From UHGV virus genome UHGV-1847153: DNA of 17,799 nt; one strand, given 5' to 3'. The stretch comes from a virus. Within the stretch, counting starts at the first letter, position 1. Each line of letters starts with the position of its first letter. Of the stretch, positions 3,528 through 17,799 are shown in pieces. A program made the position numbers and the translations under genes. The notes under the pieces were generated by a model, which saw only the letters and a list, made by a program, of their open reading frames with translations, was not told the DNA's origin and searched no databases.

Positions 3528-3537
3528 TAACCAGAAC

Positions 3538-3553
3538 GGCCCCGAAAGGGGCC
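3538..3553 (+). other. Perfect 6-bp GC stem with GAAA tetraloop (GGCCCC GAAA GGGGCC) just after the major capsid stop; possible mRNA stabiliser or partial attenuator (no U-tract)
   Basis: Read directly from the sequence; 11 nt after the capsid gene's TGA and 15 nt before the next ATG. Confidence 0.4.
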
Positions 3554-3568
3554 AGAAGGGAACTGAAA

Positions 3569-5832: not shown

Positions 5833-6993
5833 ATGACGCAGGGCTTACCTGTATCCAACGTTGTAAACGTTGATGTGATCATCTCGCCGAAAGCGGCTAC
5901 TGGTCGTAACTTCGGCGCACTGCTGATCCTCGGTTCTTCCACTGTCATTCCGGTGCAGGAGCGCGTTCGCCTTTATGCGTCCGTTGATGACATTGGCGAG
6001 GACTTCGGAGTCGACAGCCCGGAATATGAAGCGGCGCAGGTTTTCTTCAGCCAGTCGCCGAAGCCGACGCAGGTTTATGTTGGCCGCTGGGCGAAGACGC
6101 TGACCTCTTCCGAAGGTGGAAGCGTGGAAACCATCGTGCAAGCTGTTAATGCCTGCCTGCAGTATACCAACTGGTATGGGCTGGTTGTCGCTGATGATGT
6201 TGCTGATGGCGATGATGTGCTTGATGCTGACGACGTGATTGAGGTTGCTAAACTCATCGAAGCGTCCAGCCTGAGCCGCATTTTCGGGGTAACGTCAGCC
6301 GACGCTGAGATCATCAGCACGACTTCGACGACCGATGTTGCGTCTAAATTAAAGGCCGGTAAGTATTCCCGTACCTTTATTCAATATTCCACCAGCAGCC
6401 CTTATGCGGCGGTTTCAGCTTTCGGTCGCGCGTTTACTGTCAATTTCAACGGCAGCAATACCACCATTACCCTGAAATTCAAACAGGAACCGAGCGTAAC
6501 CTACGAAACGCTGACGGTAGGACAGGCGGCGGCTGTGGATGCGAAGAATGCGAACGTGTTCGTGTACTACGCCAACGACACGGCGATCCTGCAACAGGGT
6601 GTCATGGCGAACGGTGACTTCTTCGACGAGCGCCACGGGCTCGACTGGTTGCAGAACTACGTTCAGACCAACCTCTATAACCTGCTTTACACCAGCACCA
6701 CCAAAATTCCGCAGACTGATGCCGGTGTGACCCGTCTGCTTTCCAACGTTGAACAGTCCATGGATCAGTCCGTCACGAACGGTCTGGTAGCGGCTGGCGT
6801 GTGGAATGGTGGCCCTATCGGACAGCTGAATTCCGGCGATACGCTGACCAAAGGCTATTACGTGTATGCGCAACCGCTGTCCGAACAGGCGCAGGCCGAC
6901 CGCGAAGCGCGCAAAGCACCGTTAATTCAGGTGGCCTGTAAGCTGGCTGGCGCAGTTCATTATGCCGATGTTCAGATCAACGTGGTTCGCTAA
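5833..6993 (+). CDS. Tail sheath protein (DUF3383-like by recollection)
   Basis: RBS GGAGAA 5821-5826 before ATG 5833. 386 aa, immediately upstream of tube and chaperone genes, in a module that also has baseplate J/V/W/I-like genes (contractile tail). Confidence 0.6.
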
Positions 6994-7873: not shown

Positions 7874-8061
7874 CCTTCAACAGCCTGCCGGGCGGTGAAG
7901 ATTTTATTCTTCGCCCGGCGCTTGCCTTCCATATTGACCAGAAAGACCTTAACAGCGGTGCGGTAGACCTTTGCCGCATCGCGCTTCTCAATGACTACCT
8001 CGACATGCGCGAGGATAACGACGCCCGGGTAGATAAATGGAGAGCGGCCAATGAGCGGTAA
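7448..8061 (+). CDS. Tail assembly chaperone -1 frameshift fusion product (lambda G-T analogue); joins zero frame 7448 to about 7822 with the -1 frame to 8061
   Basis: The -1 frame downstream of the slippery run is open for about 80 codons (...KFFARTPYQRDAHPASGITFNSLPGGEDFILRPALAFHIDQKDLNSGAVDLCRIALLNDYLDMREDNDARVDKWRAANER) and ends 10 nt inside the tape measure gene. The chaperone frameshift upstream of the tape measure gene is a conserved feature of long-tailed phages. Confidence 0.5.
7816..7828 (+). other. Candidate -1 programmed ribosomal frameshift site: GGGAAATTTTTTG, overlapping slippery heptamers G_GGA_AAT, A_AAT_TTT, T_TTT_TTG in the chaperone zero frame
   Basis: Zero-frame codons CTG GGA AAT TTT TTG read directly. 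The -1 frame is open from 7759 to the TAA at 8059-8061. Confidence 0.5.
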
Positions 8062-10318
8062 CGCAGATACGATTAAAGATTTCCTTGTTTCGCTGGGATT
8101 CGATATCGATCAGGCTGGCGCTAATAAGTTTGAAGCCGTGCTGAAAGGCGTTACAGCTAACGTTCTGAAGGTCGGCGCGGTGGTGGAAGGCGCAGCGCTG
8201 AGCATTGTCGGATTTACCACTCAGATCGCGAACGGTCTGGATAAAATTTACTGGGCATCCCAGCGGACGGGGGCCAGTGTCCAGGGCATCAAAGCGCTGG
8301 GATACGCCGCATCGCAAACCGGTGCCAGCGCCGAGTCGGCTATGTCCTCCCTCGAAGGGCTGGCCGGTTTCATGCGTAGCAATCCGGGCGCGGAAGGCTT
8401 CCTGAACCGCCTGGGCGTCCAGACTCGCGATGCCAGCGGAAAGATGCGTGATACTGCGGCCATCTTTACTGGCGTTGGGCAAAAGCTCAACAACATGCCG
8501 TATTACCGCGCGAAACAATACGCGCAGATGCTTGGCATCGATGAAAACACGCTGATGGCGATGCGGCGCGGCATGAATGGCTTTACCGCCGATTACCAGT
8601 CGATGCTGCAAAAGACAGGGTTCAACGCTGATAAAGCGGCTGTTCAGTCCAACAAATTCATGACGTCCATGCGCGGGCTTACGTCGCTGTTCGGCATCAT
8701 GCGGGACAAGATCGGCTCAAACCTCGCTGGTGGCCTGGCTGGTTCGCTGGACAGCCTGCGGCGGCGCATCCTCGACAATTTCCCGAAGATTGAAGAGACG
8801 CTGACCAGAGTTATTAAAGGCGTGATCTGGCTTGCGAACGCATTCACGAGAATGGCGTGGCGGCTGATACAGGGCGCTGGCTCTGTCATCGACTGGTGGA
8901 AGCGTCTTGACGATGGCAGTAAAAATCTGCTGAAAATATTCGGTGCTCTACTTGTCGCATGGCGTCTGCTTAATTCTGCGTTCCTGAAATCCCCGATTGG
9001 AATTATCACCACGCTGATTCTGGCGATCGGATTACTCTATGACGATTATCAGACGTGGAAAGAAGGCGGTAAAAGCCTGATTGACTGGTCCAAGTGGGAG
9101 CCTGCAATAGAAAAGGCGAAAAAGGCAATTCTCTGGCTGCGCGATAAGCTTCTGGGGCTGAAAGATTCTGTTGGTGGATGGCAGAACTCGCTGGAAATTT
9201 TGGCTACTTTCATCGCTGGGGTATGGGTAACAAAAGTATTGGGAGCATTCGCAAAAATATCCGGTCTTCCGATACCTCCATGGCTTAAATTATGGGGAGC
9301 GTATGCTGGTTACCTGGTTTCAGATCGTGAAAACATAAAAGCCAGTGCTAAATCATCTTTGGACTATACCAAAAGGAACATTGGTGATGCTCTTGCTACG
9401 GTTGGCATCAAAACCGACCTTGGGCGAAAAGATGTTAGCGAGGTAAGAGAATGGCCCGCATGGATGGATTGGCTGCATGGTGGCCCAGGTAAGATTATTC
9501 GTCAGGCGCAAAGCAATGGCGTCGTTTATGGCGATAATGTTCAGCCTGACATTCCCGGGGCGGAACAGCATGTTCGTAGTAATGAAATTGCCCCGCATGA
9601 AAGAGATGAAATAAAAAACCGTCAGCAGGCTGCTAATGGTTATCTTGAAAAAATCTCAGACGGGATTGCCAAAATCGGTAATTTATTTTTCTCCCCGGCT
9701 GGAGCTGCTGAAATCTCTCCAAATATATCGGGTGACCCCTCCCAGTTTGCGCAATCAGTCAAACGTCCACAGGCCACAGCCCAGGGCAAAGTATTGCTCG
9801 ACTGGATGGGGCCAATGTTCAATAAACTTGAGTCGCTTTATCAACTTCCAGCTGGTCTATTGAAAAGTGTGGCGATAACCGAGTCAGGTGGTAACCAGTT
9901 CGCCATGTCCGGCGCAGGCGCGAAAGGTCTGTTTCAGTTTATGGATGGTACGGCGCGCGACATGGGCCTTCGCGGAAACGATGTATTCGACCCGCAAAAG
10001 TCAGCTCAGGCCGCAGCTAAGTACCTCAGCCAGCTGTTGCGGCAGAACGGCGGAGACCTTAGCAAAGCACTGGCATCATATAACTGGGGGATCGGGAATG
10101 TTAAGCGCTATGGCATGGGGTTAATGCCGCAGGAAACGCGTAACTACATTCCGAAAGTAATGAGCAACATGCCCACCAGCGCCCCGGTGATTCAGCAGGA
10201 AACGAATATTAACATCCACGGCGTTTCCGATCCGCGCGAGGCTGCCCGTTTGACTGTTGATCGTCAAAAGGGCGTGAATTCACAGTTAACCCAGCAACTC
10301 CCCGCAGGACCGAGATAA
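8051..10318 (+). CDS. Tail tape measure protein with C-terminal soluble lytic transglycosylase (SLT) domain
   Basis: RBS GGAGAG 8039-8044 before ATG 8051. 755 aa. Hydrophobic helices in the middle (LLKIFGALLVAWRLL..., IGIITTLILAIGLLY, LEILATFIAGVWVTKVLGAF). SLT-like block around 9840-10130 with catalytic-type ES motif (VAITESGGNQFAMSGAGAKGLFQFMDGTARDMGL...YNWGIGNV). Position after the chaperone frameshift. Confidence 0.8.
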   Translation: MSGNADTIKDFLVSLGFDIDQAGANKFEAVLKGVTANVLKVGAVVEGAALSIVGFTTQIANGLDKIYWASQRTGASVQGIKALGYAASQTGASAESAMSSLEGLAGFMRSNPGAEGFLNRLGVQTRDASGKMRDTAAIFTGVGQKLNNMPYYRAKQYAQMLGIDENTLMAMRRGMNGFTADYQSMLQKTGFNADKAAVQSNKFMTSMRGLTSLFGIMRDKIGSNLAGGLAGSLDSLRRRILDNFPKIEETLTRVIKGVIWLANAFTRMAWRLIQGAGSVIDWWKRLDDGSKNLLKIFGALLVAWRLLNSAFLKSPIGIITTLILAIGLLYDDYQTWKEGGKSLIDWSKWEPAIEKAKKAILWLRDKLLGLKDSVGGWQNSLEILATFIAGVWVTKVLGAFAKISGLPIPPWLKLWGAYAGYLVSDRENIKASAKSSLDYTKRNIGDALATVGIKTDLGRKDVSEVREWPAWMDWLHGGPGKIIRQAQSNGVVYGDNVQPDIPGAEQHVRSNEIAPHERDEIKNRQQAANGYLEKISDGIAKIGNLFFSPAGAAEISPNISGDPSQFAQSVKRPQATAQGKVLLDWMGPMFNKLESLYQLPAGLLKSVAITESGGNQFAMSGAGAKGLFQFMDGTARDMGLRGNDVFDPQKSAQAAAKYLSQLLRQNGGDLSKALASYNWGIGNVKRYGMGLMPQETRNYIPKVMSNMPTSAPVIQQETNINIHGVSDPREAARLTVDRQKGVNSQLTQQLPAGPR

Positions 10319-11250: not shown

Positions 11251-12312
11251 ATGTCTCTTAACTGGATGCGCCATTTTGAGCTGCAACTGTTGGACCAGAA
11301 CGGGCAGGGCGTTTCCCTGTCTGACTTTAAGGTCACGTTCCAGATCGAGTGGGCAGACACACGCTGGCCGCGCGTGGCGAACGTGAAAATTTACAACCTT
11401 TCGACCGATACCACGAACAAGATACTGGGGCAGGAGTTTGCAAAAATTCGCATCATTGCCGGGTATGACGGTATTGCGCCGGATGTTGATGCGAGCCAGG
11501 TTGGTGTCGCCCGGGAGATTTCACCAGACCAGGTAGGGCAGGTGAACGGTCAGAACTACGGCCTGATATTTGACGGTGATATTCGCTTCACCGTCACCGG
11601 GAAGGACAACATTACGGATTCCTGGGTGCTGATTCAGGCCATCAGTAACCACGAAGCGTTCCTCTACGCGACTACCATCACCACGCTTGCCGCTGGCTAT
11701 ACCGTTGCGGATCTGCACCGGGCGACGATGCAGGATTTCAACGCGTTCGGCGTGACGCAGGGCATTACCGGCGACTTTCCTGATACTGTGTTTCCTCGTG
11801 GCCGCGCGATTTACTCATCCACCCGTAACGTGATGGACAATATTGCTGCGCAGTGCAAAGCGACATGGCAGTTAGTGGATGGGCAGGTGCAGATGGTGCC
11901 GGAGGATAAATACATTCACGAAGCCATCGTGCTGAATGCCGATACTGGCCTGATCGGTATGCCGCAACAAACGATGGGCGGCGGAGTAAACGTGCGGTGC
12001 CTGATAAACCCAAACATCCGTATTAATGGTCTTATCCAGCTCGATCAGGCTTCGGTGTACCGCGCCGCGCTCGGCAATAGCGAAATCGCACAGTCGCCCG
12101 GGCGTATCACCGAAACAGAAGAGAACGGCAACCGTGTGCTGACCGGCACGACGTCACAGGCTGCCAGCATTGCGACGGATGGCGTTTATATCGTCAAAGC
12201 TATCGACTATACTGGCGACACCAGAGGTCAGGCGTGGTACATGGATTTGATGTGTTTTGCGCGTGGCAGCCGCGATTTGCAGAGTAACGCATCACTTAAC
12301 CGGACGTTTTAA
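11251..12312 (+). CDS. Putative baseplate hub-like protein (Mu gpP position)
   Basis: RBS AGGAG 11241-11245 before ATG 11251. 353 aa. Position between tape-measure-proximal genes and the spike gene. Identity by synteny only. Confidence 0.45.
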   Translation: MSLNWMRHFELQLLDQNGQGVSLSDFKVTFQIEWADTRWPRVANVKIYNLSTDTTNKILGQEFAKIRIIAGYDGIAPDVDASQVGVAREISPDQVGQVNGQNYGLIFDGDIRFTVTGKDNITDSWVLIQAISNHEAFLYATTITTLAAGYTVADLHRATMQDFNAFGVTQGITGDFPDTVFPRGRAIYSSTRNVMDNIAAQCKATWQLVDGQVQMVPEDKYIHEAIVLNADTGLIGMPQQTMGGGVNVRCLINPNIRINGLIQLDQASVYRAALGNSEIAQSPGRITETEENGNRVLTGTTSQAASIATDGVYIVKAIDYTGDTRGQAWYMDLMCFARGSRDLQSNASLNRTF

Positions 12313-12315
12313 AAA

Positions 12316-12666
12316 ATGAAAAAACTCATCCTGATGATTGCTTGCAGCTCTTTTGTCTTGGCGGGCGTGGCTCATGCTGATTCCCAGTGTGGGCCTTTCC
12401 ACTTGGGCACGAGCCCGACAAATGATGGATGGGCACGCATTAACGGTGCGAAGCCTGAAAGTCAGAAGGTAACGTTCCTTAAGCAAAAAGAAGACTACGA
12501 GAACATTAAGATGGAATGGCGCATGGCTACTGACCAGCCTGGAAGATGGGTTGGTCTTGAGTACATCAAGCGCAACGGCAAAGCCATTCTCAACGCACAG
12601 TGGTTGCAAGCCAGCATGGATGCGCCGCGTCAGTATGCAACATACGACTGCGTGAAGGTGAAATGA
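12316..12666 (+). CDS. Small secreted (periplasmic) protein of unknown function; cargo (moron) gene
   Basis: N-terminal Sec signal peptide MKKLILMIACSSFVLAGVAHA with AxA cleavage motif (AHA/DS). Mature protein about 95 aa with two Cys (QCGPF..., ...YDCVKVK). Lower GC than the flanking structural genes by eye. No recognisable family. Confidence 0.55.
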   Translation: MKKLILMIACSSFVLAGVAHADSQCGPFHLGTSPTNDGWARINGAKPESQKVTFLKQKEDYENIKMEWRMATDQPGRWVGLEYIKRNGKAILNAQWLQASMDAPRQYATYDCVKVK

Positions 12667-12684: not shown

Positions 12685-12738
12685 ATCAATAATCGTTGAT
12701 CTCGCGTTTTTATTATGCACTAATCTGTACATGTACAG
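12685..12738 (+). promoter_or_regulatory. Candidate promoter/operator of the TA cassette: -10-like TATTAT (12711-12716) and 14-bp perfect palindrome CTGTACATGTACAG (12725-12738) directly upstream of the antitoxin RBS
   Basis: One of only two sizeable intergenic gaps in the window (12667-12748). Palindrome read directly. -35 element is weak or unclear, so promoter placement is tentative. Confidence 0.35.
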
Positions 12739-13162: not shown

Positions 13163-13569
13163 TGACTGAGATTACATTCCTTTCGGTAGATGAGGTCATC
13201 GCTATTCAGAAGAGCACATTGCCAAATAGCGGACAACCAGACCGGGGAAAACTCGAAGGTGCCCTCAATCGCGTCGATAACTTACGCATGTATGAAGGAT
13301 GTGAGGATTTATTTAAATTTGCAGCTATGTACATGGTTGCGATAGCGAAGTCTCACGCTTTTAATGACGCCAATAAGCGAACGGCTTTCCAGGCCGCCAG
13401 CGTGTTTTTGCTTTTGAATGGCTATGAACTGAATACCTCAATGGAGTTAGTCAAGCTGACCATCTTTGCTGCTACGGGAGAGGCCGACTGCGATAACACT
13501 GCTTTGGCGCTTAAACTTTTGTCAGATTATAAGAATGAGCTGCTGGCAGATACGATAACTGGCTACTGA
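13162..13569 (+). CDS. doc: Doc (death-on-curing) family toxin, Fic fold
   Basis: Intact Doc signature HxFxDANKR (SHAFNDANKRTAF, codons 13354-13380). Overall pattern closely resembles P1 Doc as recalled (DLF..A.Y.VA.A..H.FNDANKRTA....FL..NG...........L...ATGE). 135 aa. Translationally coupled to the upstream antitoxin. Confidence 0.8.
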   Translation: MTEITFLSVDEVIAIQKSTLPNSGQPDRGKLEGALNRVDNLRMYEGCEDLFKFAAMYMVAIAKSHAFNDANKRTAFQAASVFLLLNGYELNTSMELVKLTIFAATGEADCDNTALALKLLSDYKNELLADTITGY

Positions 13570-13592
13570 TAGCAAAAAGTAAATTGTACACA

Positions 13593-13617
13593 ACCCGCCG
13601 CCGAGCGGGTTTTTTTA
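13593..13617 (+). terminator. Rho-independent terminator after doc: stem ACCCGC / GCGGGT with 6-nt loop, followed by T7
   Basis: Stem 13593-13598 pairs with 13605-13610; T-run 13610-13616. Lies 24 nt after the doc stop and 11 nt before the spike gene ATG. Confidence 0.6.
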
Positions 13618-13627
13618 TGGAGTTTTT

Positions 13628-14368
13628 ATGCCAATTCCAACTCAATCACAGATCGGCGGCGAGCAGCAGACCGCGCAGGCCATAGCCGATTCGGTGTCTA
13701 CCCAGATGCGCGTAGCGATGCCAGGCATCATTCAGTCGTTCGATCCTGACGCTGTAACCTGCACAGTAGAAGTGGCGCTTCGCGGTATTGTTGGCGACGG
13801 CTCCACCGAATTAAAACCGCTGGTGGATGTTCCTGTCATCTTCCCGCGCGGCGGCGGCTGCACGCTGACCTTTCCGGTTAAAGAAGGCGACGAGTGCCTG
13901 CTGCTCTTTGCCGACCGTTGCATCGATTTCTGGTGGCAGAGCGGCGGCGTGCAGGAGACCGTCGACCCGCGCCAGCATGACTTATCTGATGCGTTCGCCA
14001 TCGTTGGCCCACAGTCGCAAGCACGGAAAATCAGCGGTATCAGTACCAGCGCCGCGCAGCTGCGAACCGATGATGGTGCGGCGTTTGTAGAAGTCGCCGC
14101 AGGACATAACATCACCATTAAAACACCGGGCCAGCTTACAGCTACGGCTGAAGGTGGAACGACAATCACATCCCCGACTATCACGCTGAACGGCAACGTA
14201 ACGATTAATGGCAACTTGTCTCAGGGAATGGGCGAAAGCGGCGGTACTGCGACGATGCTTGGGCCGGTGACGGTAACGAATGACGTAACAGCTTCTGGTA
14301 TCAGTGTCGCCACGCATAAACATGGCGGAGTACAGACTGGCGGGGGAACTACCGGAGGGCCGCAATAA
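13628..14368 (+). CDS. Baseplate central spike protein (gpV / Mu gp45-like)
   Basis: RBS GGAG 13619-13622 before ATG 13628. N-terminal OB-fold-like region, Gly/Thr-rich beta-helix-like C-terminus (TITLNGNVTINGNL...) ending in an HxH apex motif (ATHKHGG) as in metal-binding spike tips. Followed by W/J/I-like genes. Confidence 0.65.
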   Translation: MPIPTQSQIGGEQQTAQAIADSVSTQMRVAMPGIIQSFDPDAVTCTVEVALRGIVGDGSTELKPLVDVPVIFPRGGGCTLTFPVKEGDECLLLFADRCIDFWWQSGGVQETVDPRQHDLSDAFAIVGPQSQARKISGISTSAAQLRTDDGAAFVEVAAGHNITIKTPGQLTATAEGGTTITSPTITLNGNVTINGNLSQGMGESGGTATMLGPVTVTNDVTASGISVATHKHGGVQTGGGTTGGPQ

Positions 14369-14721
14369 TGCGATACCGTCGCGAAGATACTGAAGGCGAT
14401 TACACTTTCGGCCAGGGTGACGATACTTTCCTTATCGACAGTCCGGAATGTGTCGCCCAGGCCGTAAAAACCCGTTTCGAGCTGTGGCGCGGTCAGTGGT
14501 TTCTCGATCTGACGGAAGGCACGCCGTATGTTCAGTCAGTGCTTGGGAAGCAGCGATCAGATGTCTACATCCTGGCTATACGCGAACGCATACAGGATAC
14601 ACCGGGCGTTCTGTCGATTCTTTCCTTCGATACCAATTATGACGGCACCAGCCGACGCGTCACTTTCACTTCCTCCATTGACACAATCTACGGCCAGACG
14701 ACTGTAAAAAGCGAGGCATAA
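14368..14721 (+). CDS. Baseplate protein (gpW / gp25-like by position)
   Basis: TAATG overlap with the spike gene. 117 aa. Sits between V-like and J-like genes. Identity by synteny. Confidence 0.5.
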   Translation: MRYRREDTEGDYTFGQGDDTFLIDSPECVAQAVKTRFELWRGQWFLDLTEGTPYVQSVLGKQRSDVYILAIRERIQDTPGVLSILSFDTNYDGTSRRVTFTSSIDTIYGQTTVKSEA

Positions 14722-15921
14722 ATGGCTTTGAACCTCGACACGCTGGGGCTATCGGCAACGGTAACCGCCCAGGGGATTAGTGCGCCTGATTACCAGACAA
14801 TCCTAGATACACTGACCAGCTATTTCAGGCAGATTTACGGTAGTGATGCCTACCTCGAACCAGACAGCAAAGACGGGCAGATGGTCGCGCTGGTGGCTCT
14901 TGCCGTGCATGACGCTAACAACACCGCTATCGGGATCTACAACTCTTTTTCACCGACGACAGCGCAGGCCGCAGCGCTTAGCAGCAATGTGAAAATTAAC
15001 GGGATCACGCGAAAAGTAGCGACAAACTCTACTGCTGACCTTCTGTTAACCGGTACGGCAGGCACGACTATCACGAATGGCTCCGCACGGGATAAAAACG
15101 GCATTATCTGGAATTTTCCCGCAAGTGTAGCGATCGGCGTTGATGGTACTGTGCTGGTGACGGCCACATGTGCGAATAGCGGTTCGGTTGCTGCGATGGC
15201 CGGGACTATCACCACCATTAATACACCGACTCGCGGCTGGGTGTCGGTAACCAACCCGGCTGCGGCTACTGTCGGATCACCAGCTGAAACCGACGCAGAG
15301 CTGCGCATTCGGCAGGGGCAAAGCGTCGCGCTACCATCGATCACACCGTTTGAAGGTGTCGACGGTGCAATAGCTAACGTTGCTGGCGTGACACGTCACA
15401 AGTTGTATGAGAACGACACAGGAACAACAGACAGCAACGGGCTGCCGCCGCACTCAATTTCCGCCATCGTCGATGGTGGGGATGTTACCGAAATAGCCCA
15501 GACCATCAGGGGGAATAAAGGACAGGGAACGGCAACCTACGGGACAACTTCTGTCACGGTGCCGGATACTTATGGTAATCCTCACGTCATCAGTTTTTCG
15601 CGCTCTACCGACGTACCGATTTTCGTAGCCATTACCCTGAAAGTTTTTACCGGGTATACCTCTCAAATCGGCGAGCAGATCAAACAGGCTGTTGCCGACT
15701 ATATTAATGGCCTGACAATTGGCGACGACGTTCTGCTGAGCCGTATTTATTCCCCGGCAAACCTCGGCGTTGTGAGCGGCGGGAATGCCCGCTATTACGA
15801 TATTACCGACCTGCTGATCGGTAAGTCGTCTGGCAGCGTATCGGCATCAAACATTGATATTGCCTATGATGCTTCAGCGTCCTGTAGCACCGCGAATATC
15901 AGTATCACGGTGACCTCATGA
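14722..15921 (+). CDS. Baseplate J-like protein (gpJ / gp47 family)
   Basis: ATG immediately after the upstream TAA. 399 aa. Canonical position between W-like and I-like genes. Confidence 0.6.
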   Translation: MALNLDTLGLSATVTAQGISAPDYQTILDTLTSYFRQIYGSDAYLEPDSKDGQMVALVALAVHDANNTAIGIYNSFSPTTAQAAALSSNVKINGITRKVATNSTADLLLTGTAGTTITNGSARDKNGIIWNFPASVAIGVDGTVLVTATCANSGSVAAMAGTITTINTPTRGWVSVTNPAAATVGSPAETDAELRIRQGQSVALPSITPFEGVDGAIANVAGVTRHKLYENDTGTTDSNGLPPHSISAIVDGGDVTEIAQTIRGNKGQGTATYGTTSVTVPDTYGNPHVISFSRSTDVPIFVAITLKVFTGYTSQIGEQIKQAVADYINGLTIGDDVLLSRIYSPANLGVVSGGNARYYDITDLLIGKSSGSVSASNIDIAYDASASCSTANISITVTS

Positions 15922-16598
15922 GCAAATACACCGAACTGATCACTAACTACCACGCTACCAAGCCACTCTTTTTTGACCATATAGATCTGAGCACCCGCCC
16001 GCTGATTGATGTGTCCAGCACTATGTCAGGGCTTATAACAGCCTTCGATATCGATACTGCTGTCGGTGTACAGCTCGACATCCTCGGTCTGTGGATCGGA
16101 CGCAGTCGCATAGTCAGCCAGCCAATTAGCGGAGTTTATTTCAGCTGGGACACTGACGGGCTTGGGTATGACCAGGGCATCTGGCAAGGGCCATATGATC
16201 CTGATTCTGGCTATACGACGCTAAGCGATGAGACGTACCGCATCATTCTGAAAGCGAAAATCGCTATCAACAACTGGGACGGTCGGAACGACTCTCTGCC
16301 TCCCATCCTTGACGCTGCTACCGCAGGCTCAGGCCTGAGGATGCAGATCGTCGACAACCAGGACATGACGATTTCGGTCTGGGTTTTCCCTGAAACTGAT
16401 ATTTCTGATGTGTCTCTCGAACTGATCGCCGCTATCAAACATGGCTATCTCACCGTTAAATCAGCTGGCGTATGGGCCGGTGATGTTGAAACGCCTTCGG
16501 TAGAAACACCGTCAGAAGGCTCTAAATTCTTTGGGTTTGATATGGATAACGAATACATCGGCGGGTTCGATGTTGGAGCATGGGGGACAATACTCTAA
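15918..16598 (+). CDS. Tail protein I-like (gpI / Mu gp48-like) baseplate protein
   Basis: ATGA overlap with the J-like gene. 226 aa. Position between J-like and tail fiber genes. Confidence 0.55.
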
Positions 16599-17362
16599 TG
16601 GCAATAAACAACTTTAAACCTTTCGCGCTTGATCCGAACGCTAACGTCACCTCACAAGCTGACTGGGAAGCACTTCCGGCTCTGCTTTCAGGGTTTACGG
16701 CAGGTAAAGCATCCAGCGCACAGGTCAACAAAGCTATTCGGCAAGCCAGCTTTATCGCGGCAGCGTTGGCGCAGTACACCGCCAACAAAAGCAGGCTGGA
16801 TGTGCTTGATGATGGAGACCTGAACGGGTTTATATCCAAAATGGGGACCGCTTTCGGGAAAGATTTCCAGGCGCTTGACGCCACGCTGACGGCATTGGCT
16901 GGTCTAGCAACTGGTGCAAATAAACTCCCGTATTTCACTGGAACTGATAAAGCAGCTCAGACTGATTTAACTTCTGTTGGCCGTGACATTATTGGGAAAA
17001 ATACTATTGCTGACATTCTCACATACCTTGGTTTGGGAGAAGCGGCGAAAAGGAATGTGGGGACTGGGGCGAATCAGATACCTGATATGTCATCATATGC
17101 ATCAGGTTCAGGCTGGCGAAAAATGCCAGATGGTTCAATTGAACAGTGGGGACGAATTAGTTTTCCTGGTGAACACGGGCCTGTATCCGCCAATGTTTCA
17201 TTCCCGATTCCATTTACACAGACACCGGGCATTGTAATTGTGTGCGATGGTGGTTTCGGGGGCGGGAATATGTGGGGGGCGACCAACTGGAGCACTACCG
17301 GCTTCATAGCTCACTGCAATTATGGTCTTGAAGGTGGTGCGTTTTTCGCTAAGGGCTGGTAA
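16598..17362 (+). CDS. Tail fiber protein (short; conserved N-terminal anchor plus divergent lower-GC C-terminal receptor-binding part)
   Basis: RBS GGGGGA 16583-16588 before ATG 16598 (TAATG overlap with upstream stop; ORF-track Met 16580 rejected). N-terminus [18 protein letters not shown]... resembles tail-fiber N-termini. Followed by an assembly chaperone gene. Confidence 0.65.
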
Positions 17363-17799
17363 TGATGAAATATCTGTACGTAAACAACCTGGCATATCCT
17401 TACGAACTTCAGTCTCTTTATGTTGAAAAAGGTGAATGGCCTGAAGAAAAAGGTGTTGATATAGACGAAGTAATTTTCAGGGAATATTTCTATGATACAC
17501 CACCAGAAGGAAAATACAGATGTGTCGGAGAGGATGGACTGCCTGCATGGGCAGATATTCCTCCACCAACACGTGAAGAACAAATTGCATCAGCCGAAAC
17601 TAAAAAGCAGCAATTGATTAACCAGGCCAACGAATACATAAACAGTAAACAATGGCCAGGTAAAGCATCAATTGGTCGTCTGAAAGGTGAGGAACTGGTG
17701 CAATATAATTTGTGGCTGGATTATCTGGACGCACTGGAGCTGGTCGATACTTCCAGTGCACCAGATATTGAATGGCCGGAAGAACCAGACACAATGTAA
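17362..17799 (+). CDS. Tail fiber assembly protein (Tfa chaperone)
   Basis: Overlaps the fiber gene stop (TAATGATG). 145 aa. Typical Tfa-like sequence ([39 protein letters not shown]...) and position. Stop TAA is the last three bases of the window. Confidence 0.7.
   Translation: MMKYLYVNNLAYPYELQSLYVEKGEWPEEKGVDIDEVIFREYFYDTPPEGKYRCVGEDGLPAWADIPPPTREEQIASAETKKQQLINQANEYINSKQWPGKASIGRLKGEELVQYNLWLDYLDALELVDTSSAPDIEWPEEPDTM

Follow-up and report, generated by a model that had tools for sequence, protein, structure and literature searches.

How a phage can keep a transcription terminator within the operon that builds its tail, a few nucleotides ahead of the spike gene, and what such an element does there, are the questions raised by this locus. 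The stretch analysed, referred to as the window, comprises 17,799 nt of the virus genome UHGV-1847153 and consists of a head and tail module in which all genes are co-oriented. The module starts with head morphogenesis, protease/scaffold, cement and major capsid genes, followed by those for the neck proteins, and the window ends inside the first fibre-assembly gene (Table 1). A GC hairpin without a plus-strand T tract (CGGCCCCGAAAGGGGCC, positions 3537–3554) lies 10 nt past the major capsid stop codon (3527) and may stabilise the capsid mRNA at its 3′ end. The original prediction of a textbook Rho-independent terminator 11 nt ahead of a gpV-like gene, with six further tail genes downstream, was borne out in each of these respects: the stem, loop, T7 tract, RNA folding and a strict scan all agree, the positions of the T tract and the ATG give the 11 nt spacing, and the gene list is correct.

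Table 1. Features of the window, in order of position (+, strand as given)
Feature	Position	Strand	Evidence and remarks
Sheath gene	5833–6993		Followed by tube and chaperone
Tape measure gene	8051–10318		Followed by Dit-like protein, plug and hub
Baseplate hub gene	11251–12312	+	phrog_196, 3e-84; conserved left anchor of the slot
116-aa gene	12316–12666	+	phrog_3443, 7e-46; frequent, optional first slot gene
Candidate sigma-70 promoter of phd-doc	12696–12724	+	TTGATC, 17 nt, TGc-ACTAAT; extended −10
Perfect 14-bp palindrome CTGTACATGTACAG, candidate Phd/Doc operator	12725–12738	Strand-neutral	Between the candidate −10 and the phd Shine–Dalgarno sequence
phd-like antitoxin gene, 137 aa	12749–13162	+	Pfam PhdYeFM_antitox, 1.4e-6
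doc toxin gene, 135 aa	13162–13569	+	phrog_577 Doc-like toxin, 1.5e-33; Pfam Fic/DOC
Terminator hairpin (7-bp stem, 6-nt loop)	13592–13611	+	Sequence, consensus scan, RNA folding, covariation
T7 tract (terminator U tract)	13610–13616	+	Sequence; near-invariant in relatives
Spike Shine–Dalgarno sequence, GGAG	13619–13622	+	ATG 5 nt further on; relatives have GGAG or GGGG
Baseplate spike gene (gpV-like N domain and Apex motif)	13628–14368	+	Pfam PF18352, 2.6e-41; Apex, 3.5e-8; conserved right anchor of the slot
Tail genes past the spike	14368–17799	+	W/gp25-like, J, DUF2612, fibre, fibre assembly

The element lies on the plus strand in the 58-nt non-coding gap between doc and the spike gene, 3′ of the doc stop codon (TGA, 13567–13569), with the hairpin 22 nt downstream of it. 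The 5′ arm (AACCCGC, 13592–13598) and the 3′ arm (GCGGGTT, 13605–13611) form seven pairs, five of them G-C, around the loop CGCCGA (13599–13604), and the T7 tract, which overlaps the final two stem pairs, is followed by ATGGAGTTTTT and then by the spike ATG. The same 7-bp hairpin was recovered when positions 13570–13640 were folded with RNAfold, and the hairpin alone gave −10.6 kcal/mol. It was among the best sites of a generic consensus scan, which showed no terminator-like excess over the window as a whole (22 calls versus 18.7 expected). With a strict definition (Watson–Crick stem of at least 7 pairs, at least 5 of them G-C, and at least 6 T directly after), the element at 13592–13616 was the one site found on either strand of the entire 17.8-kb window, and only 1 of 300 dinucleotide-preserving shuffles of the window contained any such site. 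There is no T run past the hairpin on the reverse strand, indicating that the element is unidirectional; a bidirectional terminator that would also serve minus-strand cargo was rejected for the same reason, and where relatives carry minus-strand cargo, separate hairpins for it lie at the left end of the DNA between hub and spike gene. A search of Rfam at the gathering threshold found no known RNA family anywhere in the window. Having a GC-rich hairpin with a short loop, an adjacent U tract, a non-coding position and covariation among its homologues, the 13592–13616 element is almost certainly a functional terminator.

The first relatives compared were E. coli prophages with spike proteins 92–99% identical to that of the window. 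They carry other DNA at the same place, always closed by a GC hairpin and a T tract and then by TTTATGGRGTTTTT-ATG. When the spike protein was used to retrieve a further 160 loci from reference genomes and IMG/VR, a hairpin and T tract were found within ~30 nt of the spike ATG in 135 of the 141 loci with an alignable spike start (~96%), in Escherichia, Salmonella, Klebsiella, Enterobacter, Serratia, Photorhabdus, Pantoea, Erwinia, Yersinia and others, suggesting that the lineage has evidently long lived with the terminator. Of the six exceptions, one is a truncated contig, another has a spacer of 30 nt, and the remaining four have no spacer and no hairpin, the hub stop codon overlapping the spike ATG. 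Another 30, remoter loci have a different spike N-terminus, and in those inspected (for example L033, L048, L056, L062, L068 and L082) a CDS abuts the spike gene and there is no hairpin. Over 143 loci (1.15 Mb), 118 of the 130 plus-strand terminator calls were located within 250 nt upstream of the spike ATG, leaving the local tail operon otherwise essentially without terminators.

For the analysis of covariation, 62 distinct homologous hairpins were aligned and their base pairs counted. Standard pairs occupied 96.8% of the cells, and compensatory double changes were present in five of the seven stem pairs, giving stem variants such as CCCGC/GCGGG, GCCGC/GCGGC, CCAGC/GCTGG, CCTGC/GCAGG and CCCACC/GGTGGG. 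None of 500 shuffles matched any of the observed measures, and sliding the 3′ partner out of register lowered the pairing to 35–55%. The alignment was centred on detected hairpins and hence leans toward structure, but the compensatory variants are still plain in the raw sequences. The T columns were invariant or nearly so across the 62 homologues, with a run of at least 5–9 T. The compensatory changes span spike identities from 51% to 100%, pointing to selection on the folded structure and not to sequence homology. Together with the clustering of terminator calls ahead of the spike gene, they indicate that both the structure and the position of the hairpin are under selection.

The DNA between the two conserved anchors, the hub and the spike gene, is a highly variable slot. 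Measured from the hub anchor in 129 loci, the distance from the hub stop codon to the spike ATG ranged from 30 nt to 2.8 kb. Fourteen loci (30–86 nt) have the hub, the hairpin and the spike gene only, two more (L073 and L155) have the phrog_3443 gene in addition, and relatives with spike proteins 51–74% identical have no cargo at the position. The ORFs of the slot fall into more than 40 recurrent clusters with real cargo families among them. Among the E. coli relatives, the contents were a 633-nt ORF, a 387-nt ORF for a secreted-looking protein, a minus-strand DUF4236 gene, a 604-nt cassette, a 546-nt ORF and a 1116-nt gene; Arc-like repressors, a tRNA_anti-like secreted protein and a T5orf172 protein were also found. 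The slot of a Dryocola clanedunensis locus (L021) encodes a homologue of PD-Lambda-1 (1e-82) with a T5orf172 domain, that of a Pantoea ananatis locus (L080) encodes the PDC-S42 candidate defence protein (2e-36), and those of an IMG/VR contig (L131) and of Yersinia aldovae (L084) encode a second, 124-aa Doc variant with a 74-aa Phd-like antitoxin, the upstream region of which is different and has no CTGTACATGTACAG palindrome. Most cargo representatives gave no match when scanned with Pfam and PADLOC.

The 116-aa phrog_3443 gene was present in 95 of the 129 loci and missing where the hub directly precedes the hairpin and the spike gene. Its product has no Pfam match, and its labelling as a sheath initiator was rejected, as that label belongs to the W/gp25-like gene. 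The gene is a mosaic: compared with the ECONIH5 prophage, the window is 98% identical from 12547 onwards and 93% identical up to 12267, while positions 12268–12546 could not be aligned by megablast, and the proteins share 66.7% amino acid identity overall. It may be a structural gene or a long-resident cargo.

A canonical terminator accompanied all 111 cargo-bearing loci as compared with 15 of the 18 cargo-less ones (Fisher p=0.002, uncorrected for phylogeny), so that every occupied slot has a predicted terminator at its border. In these counts, four cargo loci and L073, missed by the automatic T-run measure because T's lie inside the stem, were included as canonical by eye, and the three cargo-less exceptions (L076, L079 and L089) have a degenerate terminator. 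Within the E. coli-type group, hairpins of a single family, CCCGC-CNCCGA-GCGGG, were found beside seven or more different slot contents, and certain other cargos come with stem alleles of their own. When the window was compared with relatives that carry other cargo, homology restarted at 13604–13605, within the hairpin, and on the left a junction with ECONIH5 lies within the phrog_3443 gene. The breakpoints at both flanks show that cassettes have been swapped between them, sometimes with the hairpin included and sometimes not.

The plus-strand terminator is retained beside minus-strand cargo of the DUF4236 type and in most cargo-less loci, indicating that ending the cargo transcript is not the whole story. 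Blocking of other upstream transcription in the lysogen, quick refilling of the slot, and an attenuator, RNA or recombination role are candidate reasons for its retention. Two further observations concern insertion around the spike gene. In Burkholderia phage Magia (L175, 2123–2494), which has a spike 42% identical, the hub and spike genes are separated by a minus-strand gene; insertions at this place may have been tolerated for a long time, and far beyond the Enterobacterales. A second small slot lies just past the spike gene in Salmonella phage SEN34 (L174, 4257–4496) and E. coli LR-33 (L006, 3705–3932), where a hairpin with a T run (AAAAGCCCCGGG...CGGGGCTTTTT) and a ~45-aa membrane-like ORF (SEN34_23) precede the W-like gene; the window has no such insert, its spike stop codon overlapping the W start at 14368.

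In the window the cargo is a phd-doc cassette, which was found in only 8 of the 129 loci. The two genes overlap by 1 nt (TAATG). The match of the antitoxin to PhdYeFM_antitox covers its N-terminal 38 aa only, with 28.5 bits, just below the cut-off of 29.8 bits, and the identical protein of ECONIH5 is labelled as a Phd/YefM family antitoxin by RefSeq. Doc has the complete Fic-type motif HxFx(D/N)(A/G)NKR, here HAFNDANKR, and matches the P1 Doc structure in the PDB (3k33, 7e-20); as judged from its sequence, the doc gene is intact. The candidate promoter has 4/6 matches in each hexamer plus the extended −10 and was not called by the consensus scan, the rule of which demands an A at position 2 of the −10 element. 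Both the palindrome, which recurs unchanged in a Serratia sp. Ag1 prophage (L020) despite diverged flanks, and the promoter-like segment, which is conserved there together with the cassette, are candidates for the cassette's own control region: CTGTACATGTACAG is likely the Phd/Doc operator, and the two elements together would form the promoter and operator of the cassette. The phd-doc cassette also differs in GC content from its flanks (0.43–0.47 versus 0.53–0.60), is absent at this position in relatives and has its own terminator, albeit a shared one. The proposal that the terminator insulates the toxin–antitoxin cassette as its own transcription unit holds in part: it plausibly closes the phd-doc unit, but it is not specific to phd-doc, being shared by the 135 relatives described above.

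Transcription of the genes downstream has to be reconciled with this element. The consensus scan called no sigma-70-like site between the hairpin and the spike gene, and only ~11–25 nt, the T tract and the Shine–Dalgarno sequence, are conserved there across relatives, indicating that no conserved promoter fits into that space. A late promoter at or after the hairpin was rejected on both grounds, in agreement with the original prediction that no new promoter follows the terminator, and the spike, baseplate and fibre genes would thus need transcripts that cross the terminator in every relative. For internal promoters elsewhere in the window, the consensus scan showed no enrichment (14 sites versus 14.4 expected).

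In characterised lambdoid phages, Q-modified polymerase ignores terminators throughout the late operon. Neither a Q gene nor a late promoter is present in the window, which does not extend to that region. Four complete relatives, SEN34, Omnitron, ECONIH5 and TOK-001, all of them lambda-like myoviruses, were checked. All four have a Q-type antiterminator at the lambdoid position, followed by one co-oriented lysis-head-tail block. The ECONIH5 prophage, which is 93–98% identical to the window over the alignable parts (mostly 97–98%), has a nin region, a Pfam Phage_antitermQ protein (1e-24), holin, lysozyme, Rz, terminase and the structural genes on one strand, while TOK-001 and Omnitron have a different Q-like protein (phrog_753, 1e-57) at the same position. 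Salmonella phage SEN34 (Brunovirus), described as lambda-like with myovirus morphology (PMC5261728), has an annotated Q-like protein and the same hairpin before its spike gene. The layout expected of a Q-antiterminated lambdoid late operon is therefore present, with the upstream Q seen in the relatives only and the co-oriented late genes seen in the window as well, and the suggestion that late transcription is antiterminated gains indirect support from these four genomes. The LF82 'Gally' prophage, considered as a relative with a transcriptome, is P22/HK620-like and was set aside; what it shares with the ECONIH5 prophage is the torS-torT integration site.

Other features of these relatives were noted in passing. 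In the ECONIH5 prophage, otherwise nearly identical, a ~13.7-kb element (L171, ~20100–33900) separates the DUF2213 head gene from the Gp24 cement gene. It contains genes for two tyrosine recombinases and a TOPRIM/DUF927 primase, Icd-like and ash genes, IS5 and an additional DUF2280 (small-terminase-like) gene, and has the appearance of a P4-like or PICI-like satellite residing in the head module of a prophage. At the prophage ends of relatives (L171, 2762–4771; L173, 42187–43584) there is an invertible-looking tail-fibre segment, with opposed fibre-assembly and gp53-like genes beside a Hin/Cin-type recombinase that is frameshifted in ECONIH5.

Taken together, these results make it probable that the element is a functional Rho-independent terminator that forms the fixed right border of a hypervariable moron slot, located between the baseplate hub and the spike gene of SEN34-like lambdoid myoviruses. 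In the lysogen, phd-doc would be transcribed from its own promoter/operator and the transcript would stop at the U tract, so that transcription from the cargo, or stray transcription from upstream, would be kept out of the genes for spike, baseplate and fibres. In the lytic cycle, to judge from the relatives, Q-modified, terminator-resistant polymerase would transcribe the lysis-head-tail block and cross the hairpin, and the spike would be translated from its own Shine–Dalgarno sequence, 3 nt past the U tract. Comparison of the loci shows that cargo turns over by recombination between the hub/phrog_3443 region at the left and the hairpin, T tract and spike start at the right, the terminator being kept at the border while the cargo changes. 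The best reading is thus the classical 'moron' arrangement, and no new mechanism would be needed. The alternatives, considered below in falling order of probability, are less well supported because there are relatives with no spacer and no hairpin, because the U tract is the best conserved part and because the stem is kept by compensatory change.

The element could be a leaky attenuator. With no antitermination at work, it would be a partial stop in the lytic cycle, and the genes for spike, baseplate and fibres would be transcribed less than those for head, sheath and tube. Baseplate proteins are required in small numbers, the site is a natural boundary within the tail module, the element is conserved even without cargo, and the tail genes downstream depend on crossing transcripts since no promoter fits after the hairpin. 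However, the tape measure, Dit-like, plug and hub proteins encoded upstream are likewise needed in low copy number, so that the boundary separates no copy-number classes. The hairpin is missing from the relatives without a spacer, showing that attenuation is unnecessary for assembly, the four complete relatives encode Q-type antiterminators, and a 7-bp GC stem followed by U7 is the design of a strong and not of a weak terminator. We consider this reading unlikely. Less likely again is a broader possibility, that the hairpin and T tract are a cis element that itself makes the hotspot, as a hairpin-directed or microhomology landing pad, or a Q-independent attenuator that gates the synthesis of spike and baseplate; either would account for the persistence of the element in empty slots and beside cargo on the minus strand.

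It is quite improbable that the hairpin is primarily an element of RNA stability or translation, protecting the 3′ end of the upstream mRNA or, from its place 7 nt 5′ of the spike Shine–Dalgarno sequence, decoupling and setting the translation of the spike, with termination incidental. The short and fairly constant distance between the hairpin and this sequence, the fact that the T tract and the Shine–Dalgarno sequence are the most conserved bases, and the T-tract-less GC hairpin past the major capsid gene, which suggests that such 3′ hairpins are used elsewhere, are all in line with this idea. In contrast, the near-invariant T run after the stem is the signature of termination and would be needless for a stabiliser or for translation, and the link between terminator and cargo is not predicted.

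That the element is a recombination border or a relic, that is a homology patch, a hairpin target or the scar of a moron insertion with no current transcriptional role, appears very improbable. The breakpoints within the hairpin, the single allele that flanks many contents, the alleles that travel with particular cargos and the existence of loci with the hairpin only would all fit a border of this kind, but the compensatory changes across the whole range of spike identities point to selection on the fold, and a neutral scar would be expected to decay, yet no cargo-bearing locus has lost its canonical terminator. Finally, the scenario of the original prediction in which the terminator came with the phd-doc island and imposes a costly polarity on the baseplate genes, suggested by a hairpin placed so shortly past doc and ahead of six essential tail genes, is scarcely credible and already contradicted by the comparative sequence data, as the same position has a terminator with many other cargos or with none, an identical allele lies beside unrelated cargos, and the isolated plaque-forming or inducible phages SEN34 and Omnitron carry it (PMC5261728). 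The comparison with relatives lacking the island, which had been proposed as a check, went the same way: the terminator is kept, and the same allele lies beside at least seven slot contents.

The moron-slot arrangement favoured here has several known counterparts. Morons are units with their own promoter and terminator that are expressed from repressed prophages, and those of lambdoid phages include HK97 gene 15 and lambda lom and bor (Juhala/Hendrix model, reviewed in PMC3594210). As in these, the extra genes of the slot are AT-richer and lie within a late structural operon, expression from the repressed prophage would be presumed, and the late operon in the phage family is Q-antiterminated. 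Unlike them, the slot belongs to a contractile-tailed, SEN34-like phage and lies between baseplate hub and spike, and its terminator is a fixed border that is common to many cargos and kept in most empty slots. The slot also resembles the P2 and P4 hotspots in having highly variable cargo in a defined interval between conserved core genes, with recognised defence systems (PD-Lambda-1, PDC-S42) and toxin–antitoxin pairs among it, as expected of an accessory or defence hotspot of prophages; it differs in the phage family, in its place within a lambdoid myovirus tail operon and in that most cargos match no known defence model.

In the mobile element Tn916 (PMC11658703), a terminator keeps the genes downstream of it from being expressed too early or when not wanted, and antitermination is involved, a situation similar to that proposed here, although the element and the antitermination system are different and the function, tested in Tn916, would here follow from sequence. 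The cassette itself is similar to the phd-doc operon of P1 in the intact HxFxDANKR motif of Doc, its match to the P1 Doc structures (7e-20), the upstream antitoxin gene that overlaps the toxin gene and the palindromic candidate operator in the promoter region. In contrast to P1, only the N-terminal ~38 aa of the 137-aa antitoxin match Phd/YefM, and the cassette lies in the tail operon of an integrated prophage, P1 being a plasmid prophage.

What is new is the fixed border of a widespread hotspot for accessory and defence genes, the moron architecture itself being well known, and the mechanistic interest is low to moderate. The natural series from no spacer through hairpin only to hairpin with cargo would suit measurements of how a terminator insulates the structural genes of a prophage. 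The practical value of the element is that of a signpost for cargo mining: the signature of hub, variable DNA, GC hairpin, T tract, Shine–Dalgarno sequence and spike marks the slot in SEN34-like prophages of the Enterobacterales, and the slot is a defined place to mine for lysogenic-conversion and anti-phage functions, which has so far yielded PD-Lambda-1 and PDC-S42 as recognised or candidate defence systems, besides two variants of Phd/Doc and several dozen genes that are still uncharacterised.
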